A DNA stretch of 64,000 nt from a virus (IMGVR_UViG_3300047444_000198:12396-76395), one strand, 5' to 3'; shown: positions 4,856 to 58,219, numbered from the stretch's first letter. Program-made: numbers and translations. Notes: generated from the letters alone by a model not told the origin.

Positions 4856-5232
4856 CAGTCGTTGACGACGGCGCGGTTGGGGCGCCGCTTGAGACCTTCG
4901 CTCTCCCGCTCGAAGCCGTAGCCGGTGCCGAAGGCCTGTGAGCCGTGGACGAACTCGCCCAGCATGCTCGGTGCCTCGATCCAGGTGGACGAGCCCATGT
5001 GGGCGCGCTCCCGCATCGTCTCGGCCTGGCCCTTCCAGCACGTGACCGGCCGCTCGTTGGCGGTGTCGGCGTAGGCGCCACGGCGGAAGTCGTTGGGCAC
5101 GTCAGTGTCAGTGGCGATTCCCTCCTCGAAACGAAGGGGACCACGACGCCGATCGTTGCTGGCGATGTCGTGTTCGTACTGGGCTCCTCGGAACTTCTCG
5201 GGGCCGAGGGACGGGACCGGTGCGATGCCCAT
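4855..5232 (-). CDS. Hypothetical protein downstream of terminase
   Basis: GGAGG RBS upstream; coupled to next gene. Confidence 0.65.
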   Translation of the reverse strand: MGIAPVPSLGPEKFRGAQYEHDIASNDRRRGPLRFEEGIATDTDVPNDFRRGAYADTANERPVTCWKGQAETMRERAHMGSSTWIEAPSMLGEFVHGSQAFGTGYGFERESEGLKRRPNRAVVND

Positions 5233-5278
5233 GGGTGACCTCCGTGGGGTCGGTTGGCGGGATCATACGCCTGTTGGC

Positions 5279-6895
5279 TCAGCGAGACGCGAAGAACGGG
5301 CTCTCGCTCACTTCGACCGAGTCCTCGACCTCGGTCATGGACGCCGCACAGGCTAGGGCCAGGGAGTCAACGAAATCGTCATGGGCCTCCACCTCGTCTG
5401 GTGCCTCAACGAGCATTTGCCCTGCTCGGAACACCTTGATGACGTCCGACATCTGTTGACGGAACCGGCGCCAGACACGAGTGCGGCGGGCCTTGGAGTG
5501 CCCCGGGTACACCATCAAGCGCCGGTCGATCAACGTCTGGAGGTTCTTCCACCGGGTACCCTGCGCCTTGGTGTCGGACCCCATGGGGATGACGACACAA
5601 CGAGAGCCCAGAAGCAGTTGGAGCCGTTCTGCGATGGCGGTACCCATGGCCTGTGCATCGACGGCGACGTAAGCGAGCCGGTAGTTGTCCAGGAAGTCAG
5701 CGATGGCGAAGTACTGCTCCTCCCAGGGCTGGTTGTGTAGCTCCAGCCAGTCCAGGACTCGGTGCTCTCGGAAGCCAAACGGATCAGGGTAGTCCCAGTC
5801 CACCCAGCACACGGTGACCACTGTTGAGTCACGAAGGCGGGCCGGGTCCACCCCGGCCACACATGCGCTCTTGTACCAGGAGCGCACCAGGGGCATGCTG
5901 GTGTCCATGAGTGAGTCCATGACCTCGTCGGTGACGAACTGACCTCGCTCCAGCAACCACTTGATGGCGTAGCTCATCTGGAACTCGTCGCTGTCCTCGC
6001 CCAGACGACGCTTCTCCTTGGAGATGTACTTCGCATAGAGGGGGTTGTACTTGGAGACGATCTTGTAGTCGTACTCGTAGTGGTTGTGCCGACGCATCCG
6101 GCTTGTGGCTCGACGCTTGTTGAGTTGAATCGCCCGGTAGAAGTCACCCTTCACGCGGCTCGGGGTGCCGATCTTGACCATGGTCCCCGCCGTGGCTGCC
6201 ATCATGGGGTGCACCGACTTACGCACGACATCGGCGTCAGCATCCTGAGCTTCGTCTATGACGATGACGTGGTAGGTCTTACCCTCGATCTTGGCCTTCG
6301 GGTTGCACGTCTGTCGTCGGGCGAGGCTCCCGTTCTTCAGCCGGATGACCTTCCCCTTCCCCTTCACCTCGTCATCGATCTCGGGGTCCATCAGGAACTC
6401 AGTGGCGAAGTCACTCGTGAGCCGGTCCACGATGCGCCCATGCAGGGTTTCCGACTGGTCTTCGGTGGGCGCGAAGCACCCCACCCAGAGCCCCTTCTTG
6501 AACCGGGACAACATGTCGAAGCTCAACGCCAGCTTTGGTAACAGCACCATGAGACCGGCGAAGGTGTTGGCCAGGGTCTCGGTCTTGCCCGCCTGACGAC
6601 TGATGAGCGCCGTCAGTTCCTCGGCGTCGTTGAGGAGGATCGACTCGATGATGCGGTAGCTGACCTCGCGCTGGTACGGGTAGAAGGGGACCTCGCAGAA
6701 CTCCTCGATGAAGAGGATGCACCGCTTGACGAGGTTGTCGATGAACTCGGCCGTTGACTCATCAAGCTCGATCTGATCGGCAGGGTCCTCGTCTAGAACC
6801 GCCTCGTCGTCCTCGTCGTAGACCGGCTCGTCCTGGGCCTGAAAGGCATCAGGCAGGCGCTCGATCAGATCAGTCACCACATCATGGTGGCACAA
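5279..6895 (-). CDS. Terminase large subunit
   Basis: Walker A ISRQAGKT, Walker B VIVIDEAQ, motif III IGTP, nuclease acidic residues AGVDPA and HDDFVDS. Confidence 0.95.
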   Translation of the reverse strand: MCHHDVVTDLIERLPDAFQAQDEPVYDEDDEAVLDEDPADQIELDESTAEFIDNLVKRCILFIEEFCEVPFYPYQREVSYRIIESILLNDAEELTALISRQAGKTETLANTFAGLMVLLPKLALSFDMLSRFKKGLWVGCFAPTEDQSETLHGRIVDRLTSDFATEFLMDPEIDDEVKGKGKVIRLKNGSLARRQTCNPKAKIEGKTYHVIVIDEAQDADADVVRKSVHPMMAATAGTMVKIGTPSRVKGDFYRAIQLNKRRATSRMRRHNHYEYDYKIVSKYNPLYAKYISKEKRRLGEDSDEFQMSYAIKWLLERGQFVTDEVMDSLMDTSMPLVRSWYKSACVAGVDPARLRDSTVVTVCWVDWDYPDPFGFREHRVLDWLELHNQPWEEQYFAIADFLDNYRLAYVAVDAQAMGTAIAERLQLLLGSRCVVIPMGSDTKAQGTRWKNLQTLIDRRLMVYPGHSKARRTRVWRRFRQQMSDVIKVFRAGQMLVEAPDEVEAHDDFVDSLALACAASMTEVEDSVEVSESPFFASR

Positions 6896-7085
6896 CAGGT
6901 ACTAGACGGTGTATCTCCTCACCGTCTCATCGAACAGCGCGTTGCCCTTGCCGCGCCAGACCCTCTGGCTACTACGCAGGCCACCGGCTGCCGGACGCAC
7001 GTCTATCCAGACCCGTACCTCGTCCCGGAACAGCCCCCGCCACAAGTCGATGTGCAGGTCCCCGAGAACCAGACTGCGATCCGGC

Positions 7086-7301
7086 TCACTCCCAGCCATC
7101 TTCTCCTCGGTGCCTGCGGATGGTCTCCCACGCCCGCACGAACGTCACGAAGCCCCACCCCAGGGCCACCATGATCGTCCACAGCATGGCCACGATGGCG
7201 ATGGCCTTGGGCCAGCCACCGATGGGTGAGACCGGCGCCTTGGAGTTGTTGAGGCTCTGCGCGAAGAGATGGATCACTTGATGACCTCGATCGCTTGCCA
7301 C
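7086..7301 (-). CDS. Small membrane protein
   Basis: One long hydrophobic segment. Confidence 0.45.
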   Translation of the reverse strand: MASDRGHQVIHLFAQSLNNSKAPVSPIGGWPKAIAIVAMLWTIMVALGWGFVTFVRAWETIRRHRGEDGWE

Positions 7302-7422
7302 GACAGCAGCATCGTGGGCTTGGGGAAGTGCCCGTCAGCATCAACGGGATGGATGATGCTGACAGCGTCCATACTGACCATCACGTTGTCGCACACGTAC
7401 ACGGTGCCGTCCACAATGACCT

Positions 7423-7644: not shown

Positions 7645-7645
7645 G

Positions 7646-7719
7646 TCGGGGTGACAGGACTTGAACCTGCGACCTCTGGTCCCCCAGACCAGCGCGCTAA
7701 CCAACTGCGCCACACCCCG
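7646..7719 (-). tRNA. tRNA-Pro(GGG)
   Basis: CGGGGTG acceptor, D arm GCGCAGTTGGTTAGCGC, anticodon arm CTGGT-CTGGGGG-ACCAG, T arm GCAGG-TTCAAGT-CCTGT, 3' CACCCCGA; CCA not encoded. Confidence 0.95.
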
Positions 7720-9146: not shown

Positions 9147-9368
9147 TCAGAAGAGTCTCATCTGAGCGGTCTCAGGATGCTCCTCGAAATACCCCTGGAA
9201 CAGTTCCGTGAAGGTGGTGAGCAGAAGCTCCATGGCGTCAGTGTCAGTGCTGTCAACGAACCGCAACCTGTCCACGAAGCCCATCTCATCCACCTCCACG
9301 ACGTCATGGTCGAGCCCGTAGCGGCGGAAGAGCTTGTTGATCTCAGCGGCGATCTGTTGCAAGGTCAT
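9147..9368 (-). CDS. Hypothetical protein ending in QMRLF
   Basis: Coupled to the whiB-like gene; C-terminal clamp-binding-like motif. Confidence 0.6.
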   Translation of the reverse strand: MTLQQIAAEINKLFRRYGLDHDVVEVDEMGFVDRLRFVDSTDTDAMELLLTTFTELFQGYFEEHPETAQMRLF

Positions 9369-9646
9369 GACGCGACGTTACCCCGTTGCTGTTCCCTACG
9401 AAGACGCTGCGCCCGTGTGCGGATGATGCTCCGTCGTTCCTTGTCACTGGCCCCACCCCACACGCCCCAGCGCTCCCGGTACCGCAGGGCGTGCTCCAGG
9501 CACTCGCCCCGCACCGGACACTTGGCACAGACTCTCTTGGGGGTGTCGGTGTCGCCGCCCCGCTCGGGGAAGAAGAGTTCTGGGTCGATCCCTCGACACG
9601 CAGCTTCAGCTTGCCAATCCAGGCTTGTCTCGTTGTTCCAGAGCAC
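9365..9646 (-). CDS. whiB: WhiB family transcription factor
   Basis: WQAEAAC...LFFPERG...KRVCAKCPVRGECLEHAL...GVWGG: four Cys plus G[VI]WGG turn. Confidence 0.95.
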   Translation of the reverse strand: MLWNNETSLDWQAEAACRGIDPELFFPERGGDTDTPKRVCAKCPVRGECLEHALRYRERWGVWGGASDKERRSIIRTRAQRLRREQQRGNVAS

Positions 9647-10118
9647 GCAACGCCTCCAGGGCCATCTCGGCGTGCGCGACGGCTTGGTTGATCTTGGTCG
9701 GGTCGATGATCCGGGAGTCCCGCCAGACAGACAGGTTGAAACCCGCCATCATGATCTCGACCTCGGCGTAATCGATCAGGTCGCGCAGTGGCAGCGACAC
9801 GAGACGCGCACTGACACTGACGGGGTCAGGAGGCTGGTGGCGGTTCCGACGTACCAGGCCCACGCCACGCTCCGATTTCCGCAGGGTCGAACTCCAGATT
9901 CCGAACGCCCAACTGCTTGTACACGTCCATGTCGGGCTCAGGATTGGGGTGACACCGGCCCACCTGGATGGCCCTGTGACCGATCCTGAGCCGCACACCA
10001 CTACCGAGGCGCCAGGGCTCGGCCCGCTCCCGGAACCAGGCCCGCGACACGATCTTGGATTCGTCGGTGTAGCTCTCCCACCCCACGTACACGCTACGGA
10101 CGCTCTTGAGGGTCAGCA

Positions 10119-10531
10119 TCAGTACCCGCCGTCGTAGGGGCGGTAGGGGAAGGTGTTGAGCGTGTGGTTGACGTACTGGCCCTGCGAACCCGCCGACCGG
10201 AAGCCCGTCCACACAGCCGGAGGCACGGCGTCGTAGACGTAGGGCTGGTTGCCGTTGACCCACTCCAGGATCAACTGACGGCGGCTCGGGCTGTAGCGCC
10301 CGCTCGCCACCCGGGTCGAGTTGAAGTAGTCGTCCTCCCAGTCATCGACGTCGTCAGCGAAGGTGATGACCGCTTCGTGAATCCGCCGCCGTGCACTGGT
10401 GGTATCAAGGTCCGGCCCGGTCCCCATGTCTGAGGACCGGGCCGTGGCGCCGTACCGGGGGCTGCGTTTGCGGCTCTTGGGTGCGTCACCGAAGAGCGAC
10501 TGCTGTCCAGGAACCTGCCTACGCTGCGCCA
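10119..10531 (-). CDS. KTSC domain protein
   Basis: STRV..GRY...L.LEW.NG..YVYDAVP..VW..F..AGSQGQYVN pattern; probable start MAQRRQ. Confidence 0.75.
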
Positions 10532-12850: not shown

Positions 12851-13028
12851 ACCACGAACCAAGGGCCGACAACCTGCCGCTGACGGCCGTGTGTACATAA
12901 CACTGCGGCTCGACCCGGGTCTACTGGAACGACTGGACGGGGAGGCCGAGGCGCGCATCGTCAGCCGCACCTTCCTCGTGGAGAAAGCTGTTGACGAGTG
13001 GCTTGAGGCGCACGAAGGTGCAGCATGA
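12843..13028 (+). CDS. Ribbon-helix-helix (CopG-like) protein
   Basis: YITLRLDPGLLERLDGEA...SRTFLVEKAVDEWL. Confidence 0.75.
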   Translation: MPRPRTKGRQPAADGRVYITLRLDPGLLERLDGEAEARIVSRTFLVEKAVDEWLEAHEGAA

Positions 13029-14333
13029 AGCTCGTCACCCAACGCTGCTCCCACTGCACCACATGCAAGGCCTCCCCGGCTCACGCCCTGTACCAGTGCG
13101 AGGCCATAATCAGCCCGCTCAGCCCGGTGGTCACCATGGAGGGCATCCGCCAGATCCAGGAGTCCCTAGCTCAGGAGACCCTGACTCAGGAGACCCTGAA
13201 TCCGCACATCACCAGGACGCGCATCGAGGAAGAGATGAAGAGGGTGAACGAGCTACAGGCCCTTGAGGGGCTGCTGCCCCGGGAACTACTGCCCCACCAA
13301 CGAAGGATGCTGGAGCAGGCCTGGAACACAAACCGTGGACAACGGCTCTCAGAGCGGAACCCTCAGGAGCAGAGGGTCCCTCACCCTCAGGACATGGACC
13401 ACGCGCCGAGCTTCATCAGCCCCCGGCTCACCAAGACGATCCAGACAGCCTGCAAGCAGGACGAGCGCATGGACTTCGCCTGGACCCAGATCACCGGCCG
13501 GGTCCAGTCAGGCCTGGACGACTACATCGTGCAGGGTGTCTTCGATACGTTGATTCAACTTTTCAAGATATGGGACGACGACAAGGCCCAGCGGGACGAG
13601 AGAAACCTCAACAACATCCGTTCCCTCGGGGAGGCCGCTCGTGAAGCACTGGACGCCTTCGAGAGCGCCAAAGACCGAGAGAGCGTCCTGTACATGGTGG
13701 ACACCATGGAAGAACTAGACGCCGCCCTCTACGACCTCACGCAGAAGGACACCTGATGCCCACTGACACTGACGATCCATGGCAGCACCCTGACACCAAG
13801 GCATGGCTGGAGAACACTCGCAAGAGGCTGCCACCCATGATCCGAGACTCGATGATCACCGTCTCCCTGGTACCAGATGAGGCCCGCAACTCTGACCTCA
13901 AGTTCGCCGTCGAGCTAGGGCTCAGCATCATGTTCGACAAGCCGATCCTGTGCGTTATCAAGCCTGGCATGCAGGTCCCTGAACACTTGGTGCGGGTAGC
14001 CGACCTGATCGTGGAGTGCGACTTGAACAACCCTCGGGACCGAGAGCGCCTGGGAGAGGCCATCGCCAAGTTCGCGAAACAGTACGGCGAACCCAACGAT
14101 GACGTGGCCTGAGTGGATGACTCAACTGGAGGTTGACCGCATGCACACGATCCGGCTACGCCGACGCTGGTGGCGGCGGATCAACCTGGAGTGCATCGAG
14201 TGCAACGAGTGCCTGGCCAGTGGGCGCTCAGGGGAACCCTGGCTGACACCAGCCAAGCTGTGGGGCTACGAGCAGATGCACAAGGGTCGAAAGACTCAGG
14301 GTCCACCGATTCCGAATCAGGTACAATCCTGAC

Positions 14334-15452: not shown

Positions 15453-18400
15453 GGTCTCCCGCCTGATGGAGCACTACTTCGACCGCCAGGGAAACCCGAT
15501 CGGCCTGTTCGCCTGGGCGCGCATGTTGGAAGCCGGGGACAATCACGTGGCCCAGGACTGGATCAAGGGCGTCCGGATCTCCACCGTGTGGCTGGGGCTC
15601 AACCACAACTTCAGCCTGGAAGGGCCACCACTGATCTTCGAGACGATGATCTTCTCCGAGACGGGCGACCTGGAGATGGACGAGTACTGCTGGCGCTGGT
15701 CCACCGAAGTGCAGGCCTTGGCCGGACACGACCAGGCGCTCGCCCTGGTGCGGGATGCCATGGCCCGCAAGTGTTAGGGTTCTACTTCCTATGAGCGCAC
15801 CATGGAACCCCAGCGGGTACCGCGCCCCCCATCGGAACCACCTCCTGAACCGCAGCAAGTGGCACCGGGACAAGCAGTTCCCCTGCTGGTGCGGCGAGAG
15901 CCTGGTGCCGCGCTACCGGATGTTGGTGGATTGCTGCGTTGACTACCTGTACATAGTGGGACCACACGTGTACCTAGACCTGGAGGAGAGCAGTGAGTCC
16001 AGAGCGGATCAGGGAACGGTGTCAGTACCTGATTGAGCGAGGCCAAGGGGACGAGCCCATCTGGACGAGCGCGCAGATGGAGGACATCGTGGTGGCGTAC
16101 ATGCGGGTCCTTGACGAGTATGCCCGAATCCGCACGGGCATTTCTTAGGGCTATACTGGGGACATGATCGATACGAACGATTTCGGGCGGCGGTTCGCTG
16201 ACCGGCTCTTCGACATCTCGGCTGAGAACCAAGGGATCAGCCGGATCGAAGTAGTGCGGCGCTACCACACGGACAGCAAGTACAAGGGGATGGTGGACGC
16301 CATCGTGTGGGCCGCAACGACGGTGATCCAGTCGATCGAGCAAGACGGCTGGGACCCCCTCGGCTCACTGCAAGAGACCTTCCAGCACGAGGTGTCGGGC
16401 CTGCTGGACATCGATGCACCCGGTTCCGAGCACTGACACTGACAATGGCCCTCGTTCACCTTCAAGCCCTACTACCCAGTTCTGATGGTACTGGCTGGTA
16501 CGCCGCCGCAGAAGGCAACATCTGCCGGTGTTCCACCCGCCACTGCCAGAGGCTCGCCGTGGCCTACCACCACCATCCCGGCACCCGTAAGCGGATGTGG
16601 CGGAACAAGTACCGCTGCATGGAGCACCTACCCCCCGGCCTCAACGTCATGTACGGACGGGTCTGGCTGGACCGACCCCCCAAAGAGTCCGTTCGGCCCA
16701 CATCGCAGGGTTCCGCATCGTAGTAATCTCTAGCCATGGCAAGCGTGGCAGAGACAGAGAAGCGCAACCGGTACTGGTTCGAGAACTGGCAGGACTTCAC
16801 CTGCCAGGTGGTGGTCTCCACCCCGGCTCAGCGCTCCCTGCACGTCGGGGCCATCGTGAGCGGCCTCTTCGCCTCGATCCCGATCCCCTACCAGAGCCGG
16901 GACACCGACTCGGGCACCTTCGTGATCCGCGACGGGTGCTTCTGGGTGTACTCGCCCCGGGAGACCTACTGCTGGCCCCTGAGCGAGGCCCAGGTCGCTC
17001 CCTGCCGTGACGGCGTGGAAGTCCGGTGCCCCAACCACCCCGTGGTCACCCTGCGGGGACCGGTAGCAGCCCCGCTCGCTGGTGCCTACGCCAGCATGGG
17101 GCGCTTGGAGGTCTGATGACCTCTGAGGTTCCCATCTACCTGATCCTGTTCGGTGCCCAGGGCTACCGCAGCCACCCGATCCGCTCGATCCGCCACATCG
17201 GCATCGAGCGGATCGAAGAGGACGGACTCATGGTGGTACCACGTTGCAACGTCCACTACCGAGGCTCGAAAGACCTCAGCCCTCGCCGCTTCCGTGAAGC
17301 CGAGGGTGTAGAGCAGGACTACCCGGTGTGCAAGCGCTGTCTGGCCTGGAAGGAATACGACTACGGCGTATGACCAAGCACAACGTGTTCGTGAACGACA
17401 AGGTGCATGTCCGACGCCGCCAGTGCGAGACGTGCATCTTCGGGAAGAACTCCCCGATCAACACCGAGCGTCGCGACGAAATGGTCGCCAAGTGCGGTGA
17501 CGAAGGTGTTATCCCCTGTCACAAGCACATCCACCAGGATGCGCCGATCGAGCCGGTCTGCCACGGCTTCTACGCCCTCAAGGGCAACATGACCCTGCGC
17601 CTGGCGGATGCGCTCGACTACATCGAATGGTGGGACGACTGATGTCGGCGGCTAGCGAGATGACGGCGGTGCTCAACCGCATGCAGGCCTTACTGGATCA
17701 CCTCAAAGCAGAGCCCTGGATCGAGTACGACACGATCTTGGTGCGCTCCGAAGTGATCCTGACAAAGCGGGCCTTCACAGAGCTACAGAAGGTCGCCAAG
17801 GCGATCAGCAAGGTCAGGCCCGAAGACACGAGAGGGCCGGGTGTGCCGTGGTACGAGGGCGTACTGGACGACATGGTATGAGCACCGCCCACCACCGCAC
17901 CGACTGGGAGGTCTACGCCGTCAGCGCCTGCTGGGTGGCGATGTGGGTCGTCCTAGCCATCTGCTTCACCATCCTGGCGATCTACGGCACCATGTTCGGC
18001 GTGGCCACGATGAAGGCGCACTGGCCATGAGCCGCAACAACCGACGCGGTGCAGGCCACAAGAAGCCCGCGCCGAGTGACCGGCGTATGACGCCCCACCA
18101 TGACCGAGAGGTGCGGTATTGGACGCCAGGTGAGGATGACGACGTGCCCTTCGGGTTCCACGAGACGAACCTGGCCCCCTGGGAGCAGCCCTACGCCCTA
18201 GAGGACGACAAGGAGCAGGAGTGATCCGCTACTTCCTCCAGGGTCGCTACGGCCCGTGGTACGAGATCGAGGAGATGCAGTGGGCCGAGGCAGTGGGCCT
18301 GCCCGTGGTGACTCAGCCCGACGACTACCTCTACGAGGAGTACGACCTGCCCCTGATGCGCTGTGTCGTCGTCAACACCGCCAAAGCCTGGAAGGACGAC

Positions 18401-19162
18401 ATCAAGCGAGAGTTCCCCGGGCTCCAGGACTTGATCTGGTTCCCCGACATGCGCTGCGGCGAGTGCGGAGGCCGTCTGGTGGACGAACTGGCCTCAGAGC
18501 CCGACAAGCGATACCCGCGCTACGTCCACGCCACCGGCATGATGGACCGCCATGGTGCCTGGCCCGTGGAACAATGGGACTGATGACTGTCGCGCTGATG
18601 GGCCTCGATGACCGCGTGATGCACCTGCCGAGCGATGAGCACGGCAAGGCGCAGTGCGGCGAGCGCATGCGCGACCCCTGGGCGGCTGGCCCTCTGGAGA
18701 CGATTGCTCAGTCGGCTTCCGAAGCCTGTGAAAGCTGCTTCGATTTCTAGCCACTGACACTGACAACTACGGTGCCGCCGTGCACGTGATGTTGGTGGAG
18801 CGCCTGGACCGCCACAACCGGGTCGTGGTAGCACATGGCACCGTCGATGGTCAGGCCGCAGGCGCGTTCGTGCGCTCCCTGGTCACCGACACGATCTCGG
18901 CCGAGTGTGAGGACGGCTGGGATCTGTGGCGCTGGTACGTGCGTCAACACAAGGGCCGACGTCAAGTCAACAAGGTCAACATCTACCGCGCCTAGCTGTC
19001 AGTGTCAGTGGCCCATAGTGGCCCTTATGTCAAGTCGGGCGCTGGTAGCCGCTCAGCGCGTCGTGGCATCGCTTCCGTTCGGTGCTGTCATGATCGGTGA
19101 TCGGACGCCCACATTCGGGACAGCACGGTTCGTCAGTCACGCCGCGACGCTAGACGCTGTCA

Positions 19163-20936
19163 TCATCGGTACACGACCACCATGCCCACGACGCCGCGAA
19201 GCAACACGACCTCGACGCCCAGGCCGTCGAAGTGCGCCCGGATCTCGTCCATGGGCAGGCTCAGGCTCTCCCCGGTGAGCCCCACCACGAGCACCGGGCG
19301 CCTCAGTGGCGCCGGTCGTGGTTCCACAGCAAATAGATCAAGAGGGCTAGGAACACCATGTCGATCAGACTCATCGGTCACTTCCGAACCGTCCTCGTGT
19401 TGCGCTCAAGCCAGTAGATGTCGTTGATGTCCCAGTCGTTCATGCTGATGGCCCCACAGGCGCAGCGGCGCACGAACACGTGCACGTTGTTCTTGTCGGT
19501 GTAGCCGCCTCGGGTCTGCGTCCAGCAGGTGTGACTCTTGGGCGGGACGATGGCGTCGTGCCACGGCACACCGTTGAGGTTCCACATCTCGGTACCAGAT
19601 GGTGTGTCCTCACGGATGAACACCCCCTGCGGCGGCATGTCCTCGGTGACGGTGTTGAAGAACGGCACCTTGTGGCGCCGCATGAGGACCGAGGTGACGA
19701 CCACGCTGGCGACGAAGCTGATCACCAGAGCGATAACGAAGATCCCGATCATGGTCGCTCCCACTGGATCTGCGCCAGGTAGGCCCGAGCACAGGGCAGG
19801 CAATAGAACCGCGACCCTGGAGCTTCATCGCCTTCGATCTCGATGGCCACAGAGGCCCCCTTGTCGCACGACCCACCTTCGGGCATCCACCGACCGAACG
19901 GGAGCACGCCCTGGTAGATCAACATGCGCTGCTGCTCGTCCGAGAGCCCGTTCCAGCACGTGAGCCCGAACCATCCGGTCGTAGGAGTGTCCATCACGGC
20001 GCCAGCCTCCGTAGTGACACCAGGCACCGCTTGCACGTCACGAACTTGGCGTCATGAGGATTCACGGCGCGACCCTTCTTGGTCCCACACAGAGGCACGC
20101 CATTGACGCGCAGGTGGATGGGCGGCTGGCGCTTCATAAGGCTGGACACTCACCCTGCATGTGCTCCCAGCCCGCCTCGTCAGAGCCGAAGCGGAACCAC
20201 CCGGCCTCGATGGGCTTCCCGCACTTGCGGCACGTCACGACCGTCAAGGGCTGCACCATGGTCTCAACGGCCAGCAGCTTCGGCCCTTGACTCAACCCAT
20301 GCTGCAACTTGACCCCGGTGTCGAACCCGGCCTGGTAGAAGCTCTCGTTCTCAGCCCTCGCAGCGTCCAGAGCGGCCTGTAGCTGTTCGATGGCGTCAGC
20401 GGCGGCGAGTGCATCTCGTGGGGAAGCCGTATCCCGTAGCCGTCGCACGAGGTCGCTGTAGTCGCTCATCGCAGCGCCGCCCGCATGGCGTTGACGACGC
20501 GGCCCTCACTGCTGCCGTCCCGGACCATGGGCTGCCACTTGATACCGTCGTCCACCCTCGTGTAGGGCAGGTGCGCGCAGGCTTCCGTGGACGGGCTGAC
20601 CACCATGATGTTCATGGCTTCACGCACGGTCCGGTCCCCGGCCAGGAACCGCGCCTGTAGCTCCCCGGGGACCAGATCCGGGAACGGGTCGCTGATCTTG
20701 GCCGTCAGACAATACGTGTCCACCGTCAGACAGGCCATCACCACCGGATCAGCTTCCGCCCACTGCGCCGCGAACGCCGCCAGGCCCAGCAACACCTCGT
20801 CCACGTTGTCGGCGCCCATGAGCACCACCATCGTGCCCGAGCGCTGCGTGGTGGTGATCTGAGCGTTCCAGCGCTCCCCGGAGAACATCTCCTGGACGAG
20901 CTTGATCTCAAGTTCCAGCCGCTCGTTCACCGTCAT
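19163..20936 (-). other. Minus-strand block of small hypothetical genes
   Basis: Coupled ORFs 19163-19381, 19378-~19752 (membrane), 19749-20036, 20134-20469, 20466-20936. Confidence 0.55.
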
Positions 20937-21205
20937 GCCGCCGCCGTCCGCTCCACCATGGCCCGCAGGCGCTCGATCTTGTCATCCTGACGGCAGACGT
21001 CCACGAAGGCGATCCCGCCCCATATGCCGTACAGCGGGAAGCCCGCCTCGACGGCCTGGAGCGCCAGGAGAGCGCAGTCGCGCTGCCCCGGGCACCCCTG
21101 GCACACCGACAGCGCCCGAGCCCGCTTGGCCCGCCCCATGCGCCCGATACCCCAGTCGTCGGGGAACATGGACGGAGCATCCGGTAGCTGACAGTTGGTG
21201 ATCAC
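20933..21205 (-). CDS. Second, divergent WhiB-like protein
   Basis: C...MFP...ALSVCQGCPGQRDCALLAL...YGIWGG. Confidence 0.75.
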   Translation of the reverse strand: MITNCQLPDAPSMFPDDWGIGRMGRAKRARALSVCQGCPGQRDCALLALQAVEAGFPLYGIWGGIAFVDVCRQDDKIERLRAMVERTAAA

Positions 21206-21221: not shown

Positions 21222-21476
21222 TCATGCAGTCCTCTTCTGTCGCGCCGGTACCTTCTTGGCCGGTACCCGCTTCATGACCTTCTTGGGCACTTCCTTGGTC
21301 GCCTTGACCGGCTTCACCGGCTTGTCCAGTTGCGGCGCCAGGAACGGCTCCTCTTGCAGGTAGCCCTCCAGCGCCTTGCGGATGATCGTGTTCCGGGGCA
21401 CCCCCGAGTTGTCGCTGAAGGCCACAAGGCGCTCAGCCAGTTCGTCGGGGAGCCGGATGTTCGTGGTATAGGTCAT
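21222..21476 (-). CDS. Ribbon-helix-helix protein with basic tail
   Basis: TTNIRLPDELAERL...GVPRNTIIRKALEGYL. Confidence 0.8.
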   Translation of the reverse strand: MTYTTNIRLPDELAERLVAFSDNSGVPRNTIIRKALEGYLQEEPFLAPQLDKPVKPVKATKEVPKKVMKRVPAKKVPARQKRTA

Positions 21477-21972: not shown

Positions 21973-22191
21973 CTACTCCTCCCACCGCCCGAGAGCCGCA
22001 TCCCACTGCCTCTGAATGGCCCTGGCCCCGGCAAAGTCCCGAGCCACACTCTCGGGCGTGGAAGAGGGCGGCAGCGCCCCATCCAGGAGCCTCACCATCA
22101 ACTGGTTGGTACTGACCCCCTCCACCACCGCCCTAGCCTTCACGCGGCGCCACAACTCCTCGGGCATGCGAATGCTGGAGTTGTGGCTCAC
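21973..22191 (-). CDS. Arc-like ribbon-helix-helix protein
   Basis: SSIRMPEELWRRVKARA..EGVSTNQLMVRLL. Confidence 0.8.
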   Translation of the reverse strand: MSHNSSIRMPEELWRRVKARAVVEGVSTNQLMVRLLDGALPPSSTPESVARDFAGARAIQRQWDAALGRWEE

Positions 22192-23040: not shown

Positions 23041-23081
23041 TACGGTGTGACCAGGTTGTCAGTGTCAGTGCTCGCCAGGCG

Positions 23082-42765: not shown

Positions 42766-42802
42766 TCGTGACTCAACACCCACTGACACTGACAGGCAGG
42801 CC

Positions 42803-43302: not shown

Positions 43303-43716
43303 ATGGCAACGATTCTCAGATCGTATGACTGGTCACAGGTCAGCCGAGCCAACAAGCGGGCCAGGAGCCGGAGCTACCCCTGGGATGACTGGTTCGATGG
43401 CCGCATCTGGCAGCTAGAGCCGAGGGTGGACTTCGATGGTCCTGCCGTCAGCTTGGAGCGGGTCATCCGGACATCGGCCAACCGTCGCGGTATCAAGGTC
43501 CGCATCCGCATCGATGGCGACGTCGTCGTCGTGCAGCGCCATGAGGACGGCGATCCCTTCCGGACGATCACCAAGTCCCCGAGCTTGAAGTCGATCAAGG
43601 CGGCGAAGGAGGCCGAGACGAACGGCCACAAGCCCGAGCCGGTCAAGGTCTCGGCCACGAAGAAGGTCGCTCCCGCCACGCCTCGTAAGCGCGTGTTGAA
43701 GCGCGTGAGCGTCTAG
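43303..43716 (+). CDS. Hypothetical protein with basic tail
   Basis: YPWDDWFDG motif; preceded by a promoter unit. Confidence 0.65.
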   Translation: MATILRSYDWSQVSRANKRARSRSYPWDDWFDGRIWQLEPRVDFDGPAVSLERVIRTSANRRGIKVRIRIDGDVVVVQRHEDGDPFRTITKSPSLKSIKAAKEAETNGHKPEPVKVSATKKVAPATPRKRVLKRVSV

Positions 43717-44103
43717 TACCACCCAGCCTCCCCTAGTAAGAGGGGGCGTGTAGAAGCCAGGAACCCGCAACCGCATTTGACCCGAAGCACCGCCCACCGG
43801 ACTCACAGAGTCCAGGGCACCGCTGGCAGGCACAACCGGGCGCGTAAGTGTTCCTGGCTTCTTGCGTTGTCAGTGTCAGTGCGTGCTATGGTCCCGTACC
43901 AGGTGCAAGGGCTGTCCGATCCCTCCACCAAGGGTCGTGCTCCCCAGCTAAGGACTACCGCCAGTCCGAGACGGCCCTTGCACCTGCAAGAGTGGAGCGT
44001 TGAGTCAACAAGATGGGCCGAATGGCCCATGTCAGGGTGGTACCACCGGGTGTATACTGGTCCTTGAACCTGAGGAAACCATCCCCACTGAAAGGGCCAG
44101 CAC

Positions 44104-45447
44104 GTGATTACCGACCACCTTCCCGATTGGATGAGCACCTACGTCAGCGAGACCGCTGCGGAGTTGCAAGTCCCGATCGATGCCGTTGCTCTGCTGAGCC
44201 TCGGCGCTCTGTCCGCTGCCGTGAACGGCGGCGCCACTTCGCTCCCGGTCGATTCCTGGGCCGAGCCGTGCGTGCTCTACACCGTCGCCCTGCTGGCGTC
44301 GGGCGAGGGCAAGTCCCCGGCCTTCACGAAGCTCTTGGAGCCTGTCGTGCGGGCGTTCGAGGAAGTCACTGGCGTGCACCAGGCCACCGATGCCAAGACG
44401 CAGACGATCCGCAACCGGGTCAATCGCAAGCACATCAAGAAGGTCGAGAGCGATGCGCTGCGGGCCGTGGCCAAGGGTTCGATGAGCCTGGAAGAGGCCA
44501 TCGGGGAAATCGCCGCCGCCGAGCGGGCCGTCGCCCTGTTCAACAACACCAACATCCCGCTAAAGGTCGTCACCGACGTGACGCCCGCTGGTCTGCTCGA
44601 TGCCTTGCAGGACAACAACGGTCGCGTTGTGATCGCCAGCCCGGAGGCCGAGAGCCTGATGAGCTTCCGGGGAGGGTCCAAGGAGGCCATCCTTAAGGGC
44701 TTCGATGGCGAGACCATGACACAGGGCCGTCGTGGTACCGGTGAGGTCACCATCGCCCGCCCGACCATCACGGCGATGCTGGCGATGCAGCCAGCCATCC
44801 TCGGGTCGCTGGGCGCCGACATGGTCAACCGTGGCGTGATGCCCCGGTTCCTGATCAGCTACCCGGAGTCCATGGTGGGCCACCGTGAGGCTCGCACCGT
44901 CCTGGTCTCGCCTGAGGCTGAGGCTGAGTACGAGGCCGAGATGACCAGGATCGTGACCGCCTACAGCGAGCCACGGCCGAAGCTCATCACCTGGGACCCC
45001 GCTGCCAAGCGTGAGATCGGCACCTGGCGGGTCGAGATCGAGCCGTTGCTGGCGCCGAACGGTCTCTTGGCGTCCATCGCCGCATGGGGTTCCAAGGTGC
45101 GTGGGGCGCACTTCGTTCGCCTGGCGGCGCTCCTGGGGATCGCCAACGGCCGGGACTTCGTCAACGTGGACGATTGCGTCCAGGCCAAGGCCATCCTGCG
45201 CTCGCTCATGATCGACGCGAAGCGGGCGTTCGGGGCCATGGGGGCGTCGTTCTCCGACGATGACGTGGTGCACCTGATGAGCATCGTGGAGCGCCTTCCG
45301 GAGCGCACGTTTGCCAAGCGCATGATCATGCGCCGGTCCAACAGGCTTAAGACGCCCGACCGGGCGGGCCAGGCTCTCGACAAGGCCGTGGAGGAAGGTC
45401 TGCTGACCTACGACGAGGGCACCAAACAGTGGACCTACGTCGAGTAG
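44104..45447 (+). CDS. DUF3987/YfjI-family P-loop protein (replication/primase-helicase associated)
   Basis: ELQVP.D, LYTVALLASGEGKSP, TDVTPAGL, RGVMPRFL, RLAALL. Confidence 0.8.
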   Translation: MITDHLPDWMSTYVSETAAELQVPIDAVALLSLGALSAAVNGGATSLPVDSWAEPCVLYTVALLASGEGKSPAFTKLLEPVVRAFEEVTGVHQATDAKTQTIRNRVNRKHIKKVESDALRAVAKGSMSLEEAIGEIAAAERAVALFNNTNIPLKVVTDVTPAGLLDALQDNNGRVVIASPEAESLMSFRGGSKEAILKGFDGETMTQGRRGTGEVTIARPTITAMLAMQPAILGSLGADMVNRGVMPRFLISYPESMVGHREARTVLVSPEAEAEYEAEMTRIVTAYSEPRPKLITWDPAAKREIGTWRVEIEPLLAPNGLLASIAAWGSKVRGAHFVRLAALLGIANGRDFVNVDDCVQAKAILRSLMIDAKRAFGAMGASFSDDDVVHLMSIVERLPERTFAKRMIMRRSNRLKTPDRAGQALDKAVEEGLLTYDEGTKQWTYVE

Positions 45448-45479: not shown

Positions 45480-45492
45480 GCTGCTGTCAGTG

Positions 45493-45768
45493 TCAGTGCC
45501 GGTGCCGACTGGTGTGACACCCACGGCACAGCGGTACCACGTCGTTCTCGTGGCCAGCGTCGTAGCCACGGTGGTGGTGCCACTGATCAGCAGGTTCCCA
45601 GCAGTCAACACAAGCGTGTAGCCGGACCGGAGGCCGACTCCGAGCTACACGCTTGTGGATGGCGTTCCGACGCCTGCGTTCTTGCTCGCTACCGGGGCCA
45701 GGCTCCTGCTCAGGCCAGTCCTGCCGACCCGTCCAAGAGGGGTCCAGAGGGTGCTCGACTACAGACAC
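45493..45768 (-). CDS. HNH endonuclease-like protein
   Basis: CVDC...HHH.GY...VVPLCRGCH...H. Confidence 0.7.
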   Translation of the reverse strand: MSVVEHPLDPSWTGRQDWPEQEPGPGSEQERRRRNAIHKRVARSRPPVRLHACVDCWEPADQWHHHRGYDAGHENDVVPLCRGCHTSRHRH

Positions 45769-45792: not shown

Positions 45793-47151
45793 CTAGTGGC
45801 TTGACCATGGGGTTGGTGAGTCATCCGGGCTCAGGGTCCTCAGAACCTCGTCGCTAGAGACCGGGATGGGCAGTGCCCGAGCCGCCGTTCCAACGCCCTC
45901 ACCGAACAAACGGGACAGCACCCCACCGTTCGCCTTAGCCTCCATGGAGAACCTGAACGTGGCCGAGTCGTCCAGTATGTCCTTCATCTTCGCCATCATG
46001 GAGAAGAGCCTGTCCATCTCGGCCGAGAGCGCTGCGTCAACACCCTGGCCGTCTAGCTGCTCCCCGTACCGGGCGAAGGCCACACGCTGCATCTGCATCT
46101 CGATCCCGGCCTGACAGATGGCCTGGATCTGGTCCTTGGTCCGAGCCTCTACGGGGATGTTGAACGCGCACGTCGCATTCAACTGATGGGCGGGGCAGGT
46201 CGCTGCTAGATAGCACGTGTTGCACTGCCTGAACGACGTCCCCAAAGTGATGATCGTCTGCATGGTCTCAGTGCGCTGAACACCGTCGCCATCGGTCACC
46301 ACGCGGTCGTTGTCCACCATCTCCAAGCCGGGGAGGAGGATCTGCGCTCGCCCTCCTCCGGGGCCGGGTTGGTGCCCGGTCGGTTGATCCACGAGAGCAA
46401 GCCGCCGCTCGCTCGATCCGGTTCCGTCCTGGTCGCTGTAGACCTCGTTGCTTGACAATGGGACCACCGTTCGGGGCGTGTAGCGCTCCTCCCACTCCTG
46501 CCAGGACCGGATCGCCAGCCGCGACGTCTCCACCGGGTCATCCGCCAGCACCTGGCTGTAGTCCACTCCTAGCCGTTCAATGTCAGCCCGGTGCTTGGGC
46601 CGAGCCTCGGCCTTGCGGTTCCCGGCGTAGCGGTGCAGCTTGTTCCCCGCCCACACCTGGGTCTCCCCGAAGCGCTGGGCCATGAGCCAGGCATAGCTCA
46701 CCACCATGTCCAAGCGCTCCACGCCCTTGGTTGCTCCAGTGACGGCGCACAGGATGCTGGCCGTGTACTGGTTCATGATGCGCCGCAGCGTCACAGAGGC
46801 CTTCACGGTGTCATCAGTGAGGCCGACGATGGGCCACACGTTCGGCTCGACACCCTCGCTCCAGAACGGTCCAAAGGCCGCTCCAGGCTCGAAGTGCTTG
46901 GCCCACGTGATCGGCCCGAGCACCATGTAGGGCTGCTGCTCGATGAACGGCTCAGCCATCTCCCACGTGGTCTCCAAGTCGGCGTAGACGATCCAGAGCG
47001 CCCCGTCCGGCAGGTGGCTGTCCACGTCGAAGTTCTTGCTGGCGATCCGGTCCAGGTTGGTGAGGTTGAGCGCGAAGCGCTCGACACCACACTCGATCAA
47101 CAGGTTCCGGTGGCTGGGCTGCTCAGCGCCTGCAAAGAAGAGCTTGGTCAC
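45793..47151 (-). CDS. Hypothetical protein with C-terminal CxxC...C...C cluster
   Basis: 452 aa; RQCNTCYLAATCP...TCAF; TAGCCT box 7 nt before GTG. Confidence 0.65.
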   Translation of the reverse strand: MTKLFFAGAEQPSHRNLLIECGVERFALNLTNLDRIASKNFDVDSHLPDGALWIVYADLETTWEMAEPFIEQQPYMVLGPITWAKHFEPGAAFGPFWSEGVEPNVWPIVGLTDDTVKASVTLRRIMNQYTASILCAVTGATKGVERLDMVVSYAWLMAQRFGETQVWAGNKLHRYAGNRKAEARPKHRADIERLGVDYSQVLADDPVETSRLAIRSWQEWEERYTPRTVVPLSSNEVYSDQDGTGSSERRLALVDQPTGHQPGPGGGRAQILLPGLEMVDNDRVVTDGDGVQRTETMQTIITLGTSFRQCNTCYLAATCPAHQLNATCAFNIPVEARTKDQIQAICQAGIEMQMQRVAFARYGEQLDGQGVDAALSAEMDRLFSMMAKMKDILDDSATFRFSMEAKANGGVLSRLFGEGVGTAARALPIPVSSDEVLRTLSPDDSPTPWSSH

Positions 47152-53780: not shown

Positions 53781-53847
53781 GAGACGACCCTACTCCATCG
53801 TTGTGTCATCAGGTGCACTGACACTGACAGGTGTCAGTGTCAGTGGC

Positions 53848-54915
53848 TCAGGTGTACGGATACGCCTCGGTCGTAGGCGTCTTGATGTGCACGGCGTTAT
53901 CACCCTTGGACGTGAGCATGACACGACCACCAGGTGCCCTCTTGAACGGCCCCTTGGCCTCGTTGATGTCGGTGTAGTGCAGCACTGGTACGAACTGGTG
54001 GCTCCAGGTACCACGGGTCTCATGCTCTGACGCTGAAGCCAGGCGATGGTGCCCGCCCGCGAGCATGCGCTTGCCCTCGGTGCCCTTGACGCCCTCTGCT
54101 TGACCGACAGCCTCGCTGAGTCTGATGGGTGACTGAACCCCCTCCTTGCCGATCGACTCGTGCAGAGTGACGCCGGTCTTGGCCTCGATGTGCTTGTAGT
54201 TGGGCTCGTCGTTGGAACCAACGCCTGACTGGTCACTGTCGTAGGTCCAACGCGACGACTGGTGGCCGATCATGTGCCGGTTCCTGATCACCTTCGATGG
54301 CACACCAATCTGCTGCCCCAACTCAAGATCATCCTCGCTGACGTGACCCTTCGACTCGCTCAGCTTGCGGGCGTACAGCGCCGAGTCCGTCTCCGGTGCG
54401 TCGTGATAGGAACCACCACCTTCCGAGCGCTGGACCCAGTGCTCATGCGGCGCACCTCCTGAGTGCGTGCGCCCGAACTCCTTCCGGTGCCCCGCTTCTC
54501 CGGTGTAGGGCGACGAGCCCGACCAGGTACGCCGGTCCCCCTGGGTGCCTTCTCTGATGGTGCGGTCGTTATCCAGGGGTTGGTACCCGGCGTGGATCTC
54601 GGACGGCGTCATGAACATCTTCAACTGTTCGCCCTTGGATGCAGCGGGAGAGTCAGGCTGGCGGTACTCACCCTTGCGTGACGCCATGCTCGCTGCGGTG
54701 TTGGCAGCCAGCCGCTCCGTGGTCTGCTCCGGGGTCTCGAAGTGCCCTCCAAGGGTCTCCCGGTGCACACCAGGCTGCTCCGGACCCTGGTTGGCGCGGG
54801 CCTCCTTGTAGTCCTGGTGCTCCTCGAAGGCGGCGGCTGCCTCAGCAGGCCTGCCTCGCTGACCCATGCGACGACGCTGGGACATGAACTGATCGACACC
54901 CCGGGCTTGCATCAC
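53848..54915 (-). CDS. Protein with C-terminal ParB/Srx-like domain
   Basis: LHESIGKEGVQSPI...LAGGHHRLASA...FVPV. Confidence 0.7.
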   Translation of the reverse strand: MMQARGVDQFMSQRRRMGQRGRPAEAAAAFEEHQDYKEARANQGPEQPGVHRETLGGHFETPEQTTERLAANTAASMASRKGEYRQPDSPAASKGEQLKMFMTPSEIHAGYQPLDNDRTIREGTQGDRRTWSGSSPYTGEAGHRKEFGRTHSGGAPHEHWVQRSEGGGSYHDAPETDSALYARKLSESKGHVSEDDLELGQQIGVPSKVIRNRHMIGHQSSRWTYDSDQSGVGSNDEPNYKHIEAKTGVTLHESIGKEGVQSPIRLSEAVGQAEGVKGTEGKRMLAGGHHRLASASEHETRGTWSHQFVPVLHYTDINEAKGPFKRAPGGRVMLTSKGDNAVHIKTPTTEAYPYT

Positions 54916-56772: not shown

Positions 56773-56969
56773 GTGCCCCGCTTCTTTCTCGTTGCCGCTG
56801 CCTTCTTGGCCATGTCACTCCGGGCCTTCGGTCCCTTCGCCGCCTCGTTGCTGATCGCTGCCGCCTTGCTCTTGTTCGCCTGGGACTCCGGGTTCTTGCC
56901 CTGCTCCTTGATGGCCTCGTACTGGTCCGGCTTCTTGATCGAAGGACCAGGGTCTTTCCCTCCGGGCAT
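56769..56969 (-). CDS. Small basic protein
   Basis: MPGGKDPGPSIKKPDQYEAI...KSKAAAISN, resembling small actinobacterial basic proteins. Confidence 0.55.
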   Translation of the reverse strand: MPGGKDPGPSIKKPDQYEAIKEQGKNPESQANKSKAAAISNEAAKGPKARSDMAKKAAATRKKRGT

Positions 56970-57180
56970 CAGATTCCTCCTTCTCCGTCTCGGTCCTCTG
57001 TTCCATGGACTGGATGTACAACACGAGGAACGCCCCAAGTAGGAGAGCGCCGAGGGTAAGGAGAACGGTGGCCGCACCGAGGTTGCCCTGCGGTCCGATG
57101 TCCGCAACCAACCGCACTCCCGCGATGATGCAGACAGCGGCGACCAAGACGAGGGGCCACCTCCCCAGCGCCTTCCACAT
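56815..57180 (-). CDS. Holin candidate
   Basis: Two transmembrane segments, immediately downstream of the endolysin. Confidence 0.55.
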   Translation of the reverse strand: MWKALGRWPLVLVAAVCIIAGVRLVADIGPQGNLGAATVLLTLGALLLGAFLVLYIQSMEQRTETEKEESDARRERPWSFDQEAGPVRGHQGAGQEPGVPGEQEQGGSDQQRGGEGTEGPE

Positions 57181-57186
57181 CAGCCA

Positions 57187-58083
57187 TCAAGCACCCTGAT
57201 AGAAGTTGTCATCGGTCCAGTCCACCTTGTCACCAGTGGGCTTGGGGCCGACGAGGGTGATGGTGTTCAACTCAGCCTGCTTGCGATGGATGACGTCCGT
57301 CCCATCGATGCGAGGCGTGACGTTGTCAGGCTGGAAGCCGATCAGCTTGTTGAGTTCGGGTCCCAGGTAACGCATGAAGTGGATGATGCCTTTGTTGTCA
57401 GCGTCCCCGGCGAACCGGGCGTAGGCGTCGTCCACGATGATGAGGGTGTTCACGAGGTCGTTGCCTCCTGGTGTCGGCGTGGGGGTAGGTGCGGGAACAT
57501 TCCCGGCCTGGATGATGCTGGGTAGCAACGGATAGAGGACGTTGCCCGGGCACGCCGTGGCACCCACGTCCCGGTGTCCGTACCACCCAGGCTGCCCACG
57601 AGAGATGGCCCGTGCTAGCACGTCATCGGTGAGCCGTCCGCTGCCGACCATCCACGCCAGCCACGCCTGGAAGACAGCTACAGCCTCAGGTGTCGGCTCG
57701 TGGTTGTAAGGAGGGTGGAAGAAGCCGATGAAGCAGATGCCAATAGACGAGCTATTGAACGCCCGTCCCGTCGAGGGATCAGGCGCCACTGCATGGCAAC
57801 CCCTGGTGTCACCGAAGCCGCCATGGAGCACGCCAGTGGGGTAGACGAGATAGTTGTACTCGATGGCTGCACCGTCACGACCCTCTCCGTAGCTCTCGAT
57901 CTGGCGGCTGAACGCCTCCTCCTGGCCCGCAGGAGGCTGGTTCGAGGCCGAGTGATGCACGACCAGCTTGGTGCACGGCGTGATCGTGGGACGCCCGTTG
58001 GCAGGGTCGTACCGGGAGGCGAAGCGAGCGCCCCAGTCAACCGGAGGGACAACGAAGGCCGGGGCGTCGGGACACCACGTCAC
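57187..58083 (-). CDS. Endolysin, N-acetylmuramoyl-L-alanine amidase (PGRP/Amidase_2)
   Basis: VVHHSA, YNYLV, GCHA, SIGICFIG, GHRDVGATACPG zinc ligands. Confidence 0.9.
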   Translation of the reverse strand: MTWCPDAPAFVVPPVDWGARFASRYDPANGRPTITPCTKLVVHHSASNQPPAGQEEAFSRQIESYGEGRDGAAIEYNYLVYPTGVLHGGFGDTRGCHAVAPDPSTGRAFNSSSIGICFIGFFHPPYNHEPTPEAVAVFQAWLAWMVGSGRLTDDVLARAISRGQPGWYGHRDVGATACPGNVLYPLLPSIIQAGNVPAPTPTPTPGGNDLVNTLIIVDDAYARFAGDADNKGIIHFMRYLGPELNKLIGFQPDNVTPRIDGTDVIHRKQAELNTITLVGPKPTGDKVDWTDDNFYQGA

Positions 58084-58219
58084 TCCTCCTCCTCCTCGGG
58101 GCTCACCTGGCCGTACTCGTCCTCGTCGTACACTTCCAAGGGCACTGACACTGACGGGTCGTCACCCTTGTCAGTGTCAGTGCTCTCTTCACGCCGACGC
58201 GGTGGCAGTCGTTGACTCA

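Follow-up and report, generated by a model that had tools for sequence, protein, structure and literature searches.

The 64,000-nucleotide (nt) stretch IMGVR_UViG_3300047444_000198:12396-76395, referred to here as the window and comprising bases 12396-76395 of a linear 76,395-bp virus contig from IMG/VR (G000; approximately 79% complete, 63.7% GC), carries many dispersed copies of one polar 13-base word, CACTGACACTGAC, and the question raised by this locus is what reads the word and to what end. Twenty-three exact copies occur in the window (9 on the plus strand and 14 on the minus strand) compared with none in 100 dinucleotide-preserving shuffles, and all of the 23 copies reported in an original prediction made from the DNA alone were recovered at their positions. 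The whole contig contains 26 exact copies and no copy of the reversed word, and chance or low complexity is ruled out by the shuffles together with this reversed control. In the literature, the word is absent from papers except as primers or oligonucleotides. Judged from its form, placement and conservation, the word is probably read by a putative phage factor whose putative function is to punctuate transcription.

The set of copies is unusually sharp, with near-copies limited to one with a single mismatch (50882) and two or three independent ones with two mismatches. Lone CACTGA hexamers are not clearly enriched (approximately 39 seen outside the 13-mers compared with approximately 29 expected from a rough composition estimate), and the tandem is therefore the unit. 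For the 65 copies pooled from the three lineages described below, the full consensus is B-CAYTGACAYTGAC-R, consisting of two tandem hexamers in which the eleven positions other than Y are all invariant, the base at -1 is never A, and the base at +14 is a purine in 63 copies. No other conserved column or second box was found within 40 nt on either side of the pooled copies.

Relatives were obtained by a portal search of IMG/VR, which returned 80 loci, followed by retrieval of whole relatives. The word occurs only at loci with at least 70% portal identity, and only three independent, related lineages of uncultured phages carry it, namely G000, the complete 118,220-bp genome G001 with terminal repeats (to whose species the fragmentary contigs G002 and G003 also belong), and the incomplete 60-kb contig G005. 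G000 and G001 are collinear with protein identities of only 40-80%, and when the helicase was used to look for further relatives, nothing came up besides G001, its twin contig and G005. BRock, Alone3, pSt2308, G004 (portal identity 70%, GC 57%) and the prophage-like relatives lack the word, and BRock has no other over-represented word. Repeated 13-mers in more distant relatives are collagen-like G-X-Y coding repeats of tail fibres and are unrelated. The nearest isolates are the Streptomyces phages BRock, Alone3 and their relatives (portal identity 59%), and a megablast search against deposited phages gave no match. As more distant portal relatives sit within Streptomyces, Nonomuraea and Terracoccus genomes, the host is probably an actinobacterium. 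Searches for Phage_integrase, Resolvase and ParB_N gave no match, also in the complete 118-kb G001, and no serine recombinase was found. The phage is thus probably lytic and a role in lysogenic immunity is unlikely; only distant portal relatives are prophage-like, and all of these lack the word.

Variation among copies is restricted to the equivalent third base of each hexamer, and its usage is lineage-specific. All 26 copies in G000 are of the C/C form, the 30 copies in G001 comprise 16 T/C, 10 T/T, 2 C/C and 2 C/T forms, and the nine copies in G005 comprise seven T/T and two mixed forms. In L009, a closer relative of G000 (74% nucleotide identity), the orthologous site at approximately -811 is kept in the C/T form CACTGACATTGAC, which indicates that G000 became uniformly C/C only recently and in a concerted manner. 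Lineage-specific variation of this kind is the pattern expected of a putative repeat-reading protein that co-evolves with its sites, and the equivalence of the variable positions, the lineage-wide switch and the lack of a partner box point to such a protein having two equivalent reading heads.

The copies are concentrated at gene junctions. Copies lying fully inside called genes number 12 of 26 in G000, 13 of 30 in G001 and 1 of 9 in G005, compared with an expectation of approximately 88% (p = 3e-7, 8e-10 and 1e-6, respectively). Gene coordinates are from our own codon-usage gene caller and are approximate; among the genes identified in the window are those for the portal (1540-3195, minus), the large terminase (5279-6880, minus), two helicases (23082-24626, minus, and 44131-45447, plus), an amidase endolysin (57187-58083) and a tail-fibre protein (58852-62604, minus), with further products including WhiB (20933-21205), two ribbon-helix-helix (RHH) proteins, one weak winged-helix protein and an AAA_5 ATPase. 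The sites in the window are as follows, with sense and antisense referring to local transcription.

5101-5113, minus: sense, in a 125-aa gene (4855-5232) where it reads T-D-T-D; a GTG abuts the word (GAC-GTG).
9237-9249, minus: sense, reading TDTD in the called open reading frame (ORF) 9147-9368, with an in-frame ATG 3 nt beyond; the equivalent junction of G001 has a copy at 30034.
9809-9821, plus: antisense, at the junction of 9826-10119 (minus) and 9606-9863 (minus); position, orientation and the flank GGGTCAGG.GGCTG are kept at 29641 of G001.
13761-13773, plus: sense, 4 nt past the stop of 13025-13756 and forming codons 3-6 of 13756-14112.
16431-16443, plus: sense; its first TGA is the stop codon of 16164-16436, and an ATG lies 1 nt beyond (GACaATG).
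18752-18764, plus: sense, 1 nt past the TAG stop of 18574-18750, with the next start 15 nt on; left arm of a convergent pair.
18998-19010, minus: right arm of that pair, 2 nt past the stop of a 71-aa gene (18780-18995, plus), at a plus/minus convergent block boundary.
23058-23070, minus: sense, past the helicase stop, then a strong terminator hairpin and a non-coding region; the copy at 11138 of G001 is at the same helicase junction, and a hairpin and a 580-nt gap follow there too.
28156-28168, minus: sense, intergenic, upstream of a promoter cassette and gene 27867-28118.
28274-28286, plus: antisense, 3 nt past the stop of 28290-28589 (minus); pairs with 28156, 105 nt apart.
31384-31396, minus: sense, past the stop of 31399-31599, with a promoter cassette downstream.
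32236-32248, minus: sense, reading TDTD near the 3' end of ORF 32179-32493 and 61 nt before the gene 31596-32174 (192 aa); in G001 the copy at 1063 is placed identically with respect to the orthologue of this gene.
33029-33041, minus: sense, past the stop of 33043-33282 and directly abutting a tRNA-like element.
34180-34192, minus: sense, reading TDTD inside ORF 33997-34656, where the surrounding coding potential is weak.
35544-35556, minus: sense, intergenic, with the weak winged-helix gene 35095-35484 lying 59 nt downstream; the junction is kept at 116693 of G001.
37726-37738, minus: sense, past the stop of 37760-37942, with a promoter cassette downstream.
42781-42793, plus: sense, past the stop of a 664-aa gene, with the next start 9 nt on; kept at 110218 of G001.
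43869-43881, minus: intergenic, antisense to the flanking plus-strand genes; a strongly structured stretch follows.
45486-45498, minus: at the convergent junction of a DpdA-like gene (minus) and a helicase gene (plus), with a terminator hairpin 7 nt on; the same junction has copies in G001 (107421, where the TGA is the DpdA stop) and G005 (9340).
53816-53845: perfect inverted pair, 53816 plus and 53833 minus, with a 4-nt spacer, past the stop of 53848-54915; the orthologous junction of G001 has a single copy at 98525.
58143-58182: inverted pair, 58143 plus and 58170 minus, separated by 14 nt, with 58220-58774 on one side and the endolysin gene 57187-58083 on the other; this junction has a single sense copy in G001 (96233).

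For copies outside genes, the usual distance from the stop codon of the upstream gene on the same strand is -6 to 21 nt, even before long gaps; the distances from stop to word and to the next start are 11 and 564 nt at 23058, 1 and 105 nt at 33029, and 2 and 74 nt at 31384. The word's own TGA serves as stop codon twice, at 16431 and at 107421 of G001. Overlap with or proximity to stop codons, as the original prediction had it, was confirmed for 16431, 18752 (1 nt), 23058 (11 nt), 31384 (2 nt), 33029 (1 nt), 37726 (21 nt), 42781 (15 nt) and 53833 (2 nt), and had to be given up for 45486, which lies 294 nt past the DpdA stop, at a convergent junction by a terminator. A strong terminator-like hairpin is present within approximately 20 nt downstream of 10 of the 65 pooled copies, compared with 4 of 65 upstream and 8% in controls, and in the early region a promoter cassette lies downstream of some copies. 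Copies also stand at convergent junctions before a shared terminator (45486 and, in G001, 17832, 3672 and 107421). G000 and G001 share the word at approximately ten junctions (23058, 42781, 45486, 35544, 32236, 9237, 9809, 53816, 58170 and partly 18752) and other copies are lineage-specific, so that sites are both maintained and gained. The word was also considered as the boundary of a mobile cassette, a reading that is weakly supported: a second copy came in with the gene inserted at 53848-54915, but no such copy accompanies the other relocated genes.

The orientation of the copies follows the transcription blocks and flips with them. Assignment by hand gives sense to antisense ratios of 18:8 in G000 and 23:7 in G001, and an automated nearest-gene rule applied to the three genomes gives 43:22 (p = 0.0125). 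Within the window, 17-18 of the 23 copies follow local transcription by our gene calls, in agreement with the approximately 17 of the original prediction. The polarity is real but partial (approximately 70%, or between about 2:1 and 3:1) and is not near-absolute. The antisense copies are non-random, as the chance expectation of exact copies is essentially zero and G001 keeps both the 9809 copy and its flank; those inside genes use the rare AGT codon and are sited in variable loops. Convergent pairs recur in all three lineages (18752/18998, 53816/53833 and 58143/58170 in G000, 40979/41148 and 65968/66270 in G001, and 39812/39851 in G005). The antisense copies, conserved and written in rare codons, and the recurrence of convergent pairs speak more for a site recognised in double-stranded DNA than for a signal read solely in sense RNA.

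Selection on the copies within genes acts on nucleotides. The TDTD reading of embedded copies noted in the original prediction is real, as all six TDTD peptides in G000 are encoded by the word (xxC ACT GAC ACT GAC) even though ACT makes up only 10% of Thr codons, giving a chance of approximately 0.006 per peptide. In G001, all six IDTD peptides are spelled ATT GAC ACT GAC, where ATT makes up 5% of Ile codons and ACT 7% of Thr codons. At the 5101 site, the peptide IATDTDVP is conserved and G001 and G005 have ACC at both Thr codons (ACC GAC ACC GAC in G001), and two synonymous C-to-T changes in G000 create the word. The marks of selection are unusually clear in the recoded peptides, the joint C/T switch and the shared junctions. 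The phage therefore bears a codon cost, and sometimes a peptide cost, for more copies, and the origin of the 5101 site by point mutation indicates that the word is not a mobile insertion.

The reading developed here, held tentatively and with somewhat less than an even chance, is that the word is a docking site for a putative phage-encoded protein that reads the tandem hexamers and punctuates transcription in the manner of a stoperator. The placement at cistron ends together with the orientation bias favours an orientation-dependent block or insulator acting on RNA polymerase; it is from these patterns that we infer a protein reader, its reading on DNA and an effect on transcription. The factor would most likely be a DNA-binding protein with two identical subunits or domains, each contacting one CAYTGA hexamer, and could be one of two Arc-like RHH proteins or the weak winged-helix protein. 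Its sites would be kept wherever the genome tolerates them, mostly in the short gap left between a stop codon and whichever terminator, promoter cassette or start codon follows, and the preferred orientation would be that met by the transcribing RNA polymerase. The bound factor would stop or insulate read-through at cistron ends, in both directions where copies converge. As no lysogeny genes are present, its role would be temporal control through the shut-off or delay of gene sets rather than lysogenic immunity.

Several points weigh against this docking-site reading. Approximately 30% of the copies are antisense, so that polarity is a tendency rather than a strict rule; proteins that bind double-stranded DNA cooperatively seldom use a 6-bp period; and the near-absence of degenerate copies is sharper than in usual operator sets. 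Unless binding is conditional, sense copies in late genes (e.g., at 5101) would stand in the way of essential transcription, and some of the junction assignments may be off. Furthermore, no reader was identified among the phage proteins, and homologues of the RHH, WhiB and winged-helix proteins were not found in the incomplete G005. A basic 137-aa protein (43303-43716, plus) was considered as the reader, as no other small protein is common to the three lineages that have the word and absent from both G004 and BRock; it is unsupported in this role, and its family is frequent in viral contigs without the word. In this protein, the N-terminal 95 aa form a conserved domain (YPWDDWFDGRIW...ERVIRTSANR) and the tail is rich in lysine; the protein matches no Pfam family, and has 43 metagenomic homologues and approximately 120 viral-contig matches; its structure model is of medium confidence and matched no known fold.

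RHH proteins read contiguous short repeats in direct or convergent arrangement, and for this reason the two Arc-like RHH proteins encoded in the window would be the best candidates for the reader.

21222-21476, minus: second RHH protein, with a basic tail; candidate reader only.
22188-22493, minus: Arc-like RHH protein; candidate reader only, with an orthologue at the same place in G001.

The winged-helix candidate at 35095-35484 has a weak Lrp/AsnC-type helix-turn-helix match, the sole result of PDB sequence searches with four small proteins. Searches with L5 gp71 (from Z18946) by tblastn and phmmer against G000, G001 and G005, a test at the level of sequence only, gave a best E of 0.17. No RNA polymerase or sigma gene was present among the proteins scanned, and no NusG or RfaH paralogue was found.

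Explanations other than DNA docking have to be weighed against the same observations. The one most worth considering, which we regard as unlikely but far from negligible, is that the word is read during or after transcription, either as CAYUGACAYUGAC in the 3' untranslated region of nascent or mature RNA or as the non-template strand in the transcription bubble, by a phage RNA- or single-stranded-DNA-binding protein or nuclease that would help transcripts terminate, define or protect the 3' ends of mRNAs, or act in the processing of polycistronic RNA. RNase P cuts 5' of tRNAs, and a cut at the tRNA-like element abutting 33029 would leave the word as the 3' end of the upstream mRNA. Such a role would also fit the prevalence of sense copies, the typical order of stop codon, word and terminator hairpin, a 6-nt tandem period that is more typical of single-strand readers, and a letter-perfect conservation that resembles ops-type elements. 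It accounts poorly for the 8 of 26 copies in G000 and 7 of 30 in G001 that are antisense yet non-random, conserved and spelled with rare codons, and the only RNA-binding protein found is a KTSC-domain protein that is also present in BRock, which lacks the word. The predicted RNA accessibility of the word is no higher than when it is planted randomly or after other stops, so that this comparison neither supports nor excludes a role as RNA. The remaining explanations, taken jointly, hold a sizeable minority of the probability. Among them, it is improbable that the word is a DNA mark apart from transcription, such as a signal for recombination (Chi-like or other), for replication or for packaging, a nicking site, or the sequence modified by the phage's DpdA-like 7-deazaguanine DNA-modifying enzyme. 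The apparent advantage of more copies, created even within genes by synonymous changes, the exactness reminiscent of nuclease or modification-enzyme sites, and the TGT/DpdA-like gene adjoining a conserved copy all suit such a mark. The orientation, however, tracks transcription blocks and not genome position, a strong preference for junctions is not expected of Chi-like or modification sites, and a DpdA target in particular is not supported by co-occurrence, as BRock has a DpdA homologue and no word. The original prediction had also named parS-like sites next to a ParB-like domain encoded beside the 53816 pair. This had to be abandoned, as the 355-aa protein at 53848-54915 has no Pfam or PHROG match, PF02195 is absent from G000, G001 and G005, and the word is not palindromic, as parS sites usually are.

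Two further explanations connect the word to transcription initiation or to the host. That it is a phage-specific promoter or promoter core, with initiation at the +14 purine and often leaderless mRNAs, is quite improbable. Besides the purine at +14, its appeal lies in the copies that abut start codons (GAC-ATG at 24339, 6189 and 65968 of G001, GACaATG at 16431 and GAC-GTG at 5101), in the leaderless cassettes clearly used elsewhere in the phage, and in the T forms, which hold TTGACA or TTGACR, the Streptomyces -35 consensus. This mimicry is weakened by the form CTGACA in G000. A TANNNT in the appropriate -10 window, 16-19 bp downstream of the -35-like hexamer, is found in only 2 of 65 copies and no downstream column is conserved, and a sigma-A or bipartite promoter was rejected for want of a conserved flank and a -10 element. 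Many copies would fire straight into a terminator or a convergent gene, and the lack of a polymerase or sigma gene among the scanned proteins also speaks against a phage-specific promoter. Marginally less probable still is mimicry of a host site that would recruit or titrate a host factor through a PafBC -26 element, a WhiA GACAC box or sigma region 4. The WhiA motif, GACAC, forms the middle of the word, and the phage encodes a WhiB; GACAC becomes GACAT, however, in most copies of G005 and a third of those in G001, and host factors would not explain lineage-specific C/T switching. The reverse complement holds TGTCAGTG, which resembles the -26 element tGTCgg of PafBC-dependent promoters, defined as tGTCgg-N10-tAnnnT (PMC8635444). 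A PafBC promoter was nevertheless rejected, as no TAnnnT stands at the N10 spacing in either register and TGTCAG in the reverse complement is accompanied by no column enrichment.

The surroundings of the copies contain several further elements. The only known RNA family beside any copy is a sub-threshold tRNA-like match at the base following the 33029 word, with Rfam matches to the tmRNA tRNA-like domain (E 0.0017) and mascRNA (E 0.0042), which is not called by ARAGORN.

32975-33028, minus: 54-nt tRNA-like acceptor/T-arm mimic without an anticodon arm, beginning at the base after the 33029 13-mer.

The promoter cassettes consist, in order, of a small hairpin (GGGCCGAATGGCCC), the near-palindrome TGTTGAGTCAACA(G), TAGACT or TACACT, 6-7 nt and an ATG; the cassette sequence TTGAGTCAA is present in 13 exact copies (11 at cassette coordinates, in the window at 24600-35150 and 44000) together with degenerate ones. 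These cassettes look like a series of leaderless early promoters with a common operator. The TGTTGAGTCAACA palindrome would be a second repeated element that needs a reader of its own, and in G001 a related TGTTG-N3-CAACA palindrome is frequently found 2-10 nt from the 13-mer. The 564-nt non-coding stretch between the helicase and RHH genes (22494-23057) has hairpins and short palindromes and no Rfam match, is matched by the 580-nt gap in G001, and may be an origin or control region. Following the antisense copy at 43869, the minus strand at 43740-43868 is predicted to fold at -64 kcal/mol for 120 nt; it lies between two plus-strand genes, has no Rfam match, and may encode a small RNA. A different sequence, GGTACCAC, has 30 copies in the whole contig, frequently as the palindrome GGTGGTACCACC and mostly within genes.

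Other genes in the window bear on the biology of the phage. The queuine tRNA-ribosyltransferase/DpdA-like gene at 45793-47151 (minus; PHROG 887, E 5e-27) is conserved in G001, G005 and BRock, and suggests that the phage DNA may carry 7-deazaguanine bases. A Ku homologue (38682-39485; Pfam Ku, E 3e-14) adjoins the AAA_5 ATPase gene (region 38682-40596, minus), and G001 and G005 keep both; among mycobacteriophages, a few that have short cohesive ends are known to encode Ku. The minus strand further carries one lone tRNA-Pro (GGG) gene (7645-7719), upstream (5') of the terminase gene.

Among known systems, the start-associated sequences of Cluster K mycobacteriophages immediately precede start codons and contain the ribosome-binding site, and phiC31 has conserved inverted repeats that are palindromes at promoters. 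Both resemble the word in being dispersed, highly conserved short intergenic words of actinophages tied to gene expression, and their role fits the separate TGTTGAGTCAACA cassette and not the 13-mer. The ops elements read by RfaH are letter-perfect, strand-specific words of 12-13 nt that are read during elongation and occur once per operon, in operon leaders. The copies here differ in standing at cistron ends, in being many per genome and in being 30% antisense, with no NusG or RfaH paralogue alongside them. The Omega (RHH) repressor of pSM19035 binds contiguous 6-7-bp repeats in direct or convergent order, a likeness in site design that is joined by the two Arc-like RHH candidate readers encoded by the phage. 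Omega arrays, in contrast, are found at few promoters, whereas the approximately 26 two-repeat sites here are dispersed at gene ends.

The closest likeness is to the stoperators of Cluster A mycobacteriophages, read by repressors such as L5 gp71 and that of TipsytheTRex. The L5-type sites are asymmetric 13-mers, of which more than 20 are scattered through promoters and short gaps between genes or overlap stop and start codons, with an orientation that correlates strikingly with transcription and a sequence that varies among related phage lineages (PMC9283540). The gp71-type immunity repressor is monomeric, with a helix-turn-helix and a Stoperator domain; its binding blocks elongation depending on site orientation, and in the lysogen the sites silence lytic genes. 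The corresponding numbers here are 26 in G000, 30 in G001 and 9 in the 60 kb of G005. The stoperator analogy of the original prediction is upheld as a layout by the junction enrichment (p = 3e-7 to 8e-10), the orientation bias and the conservation, and fails as membership of Cluster A, as there is no gp71 homologue, integrase, serine recombinase or ParB and there are no partition genes. The sites also differ in being tandem hexamers rather than a non-repetitive sequence, in a polarity of only approximately 70% and in a letter-perfect set; they are placed after stops and before terminators and not at an early lytic promoter, and the phage lineage is unrelated, its nearest isolates being the BRock-like Streptomyces phages. 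The word would thus work like stoperators and is not a member of the Cluster A system. To our knowledge, dispersed polar words have been worked out experimentally only in Cluster A mycobacteriophages, where they serve lysogenic immunity. A stoperator-like layout is now seen in an unrelated, uncultured and probably lytic actinophage clade with a different, tandem-hexamer site design. In its fullest form, which is possible but on balance doubtful, the proposal is that stoperator-type control was invented independently in a probably lytic actinophage, with a putative protein, possibly an Arc-like RHH protein, reading two hexamers, with its sites maximised, and with a switch of specificity from T to C together with all of the sites. 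The three natural specificity states (C/C, mixed and T/T) ease the design of binding experiments, and if the reader protein is found, it would provide a compact, highly specific and orientation-dependent DNA-protein pair for high-GC hosts and would show that punctuating transcription across the whole genome is a strategy general to phages.

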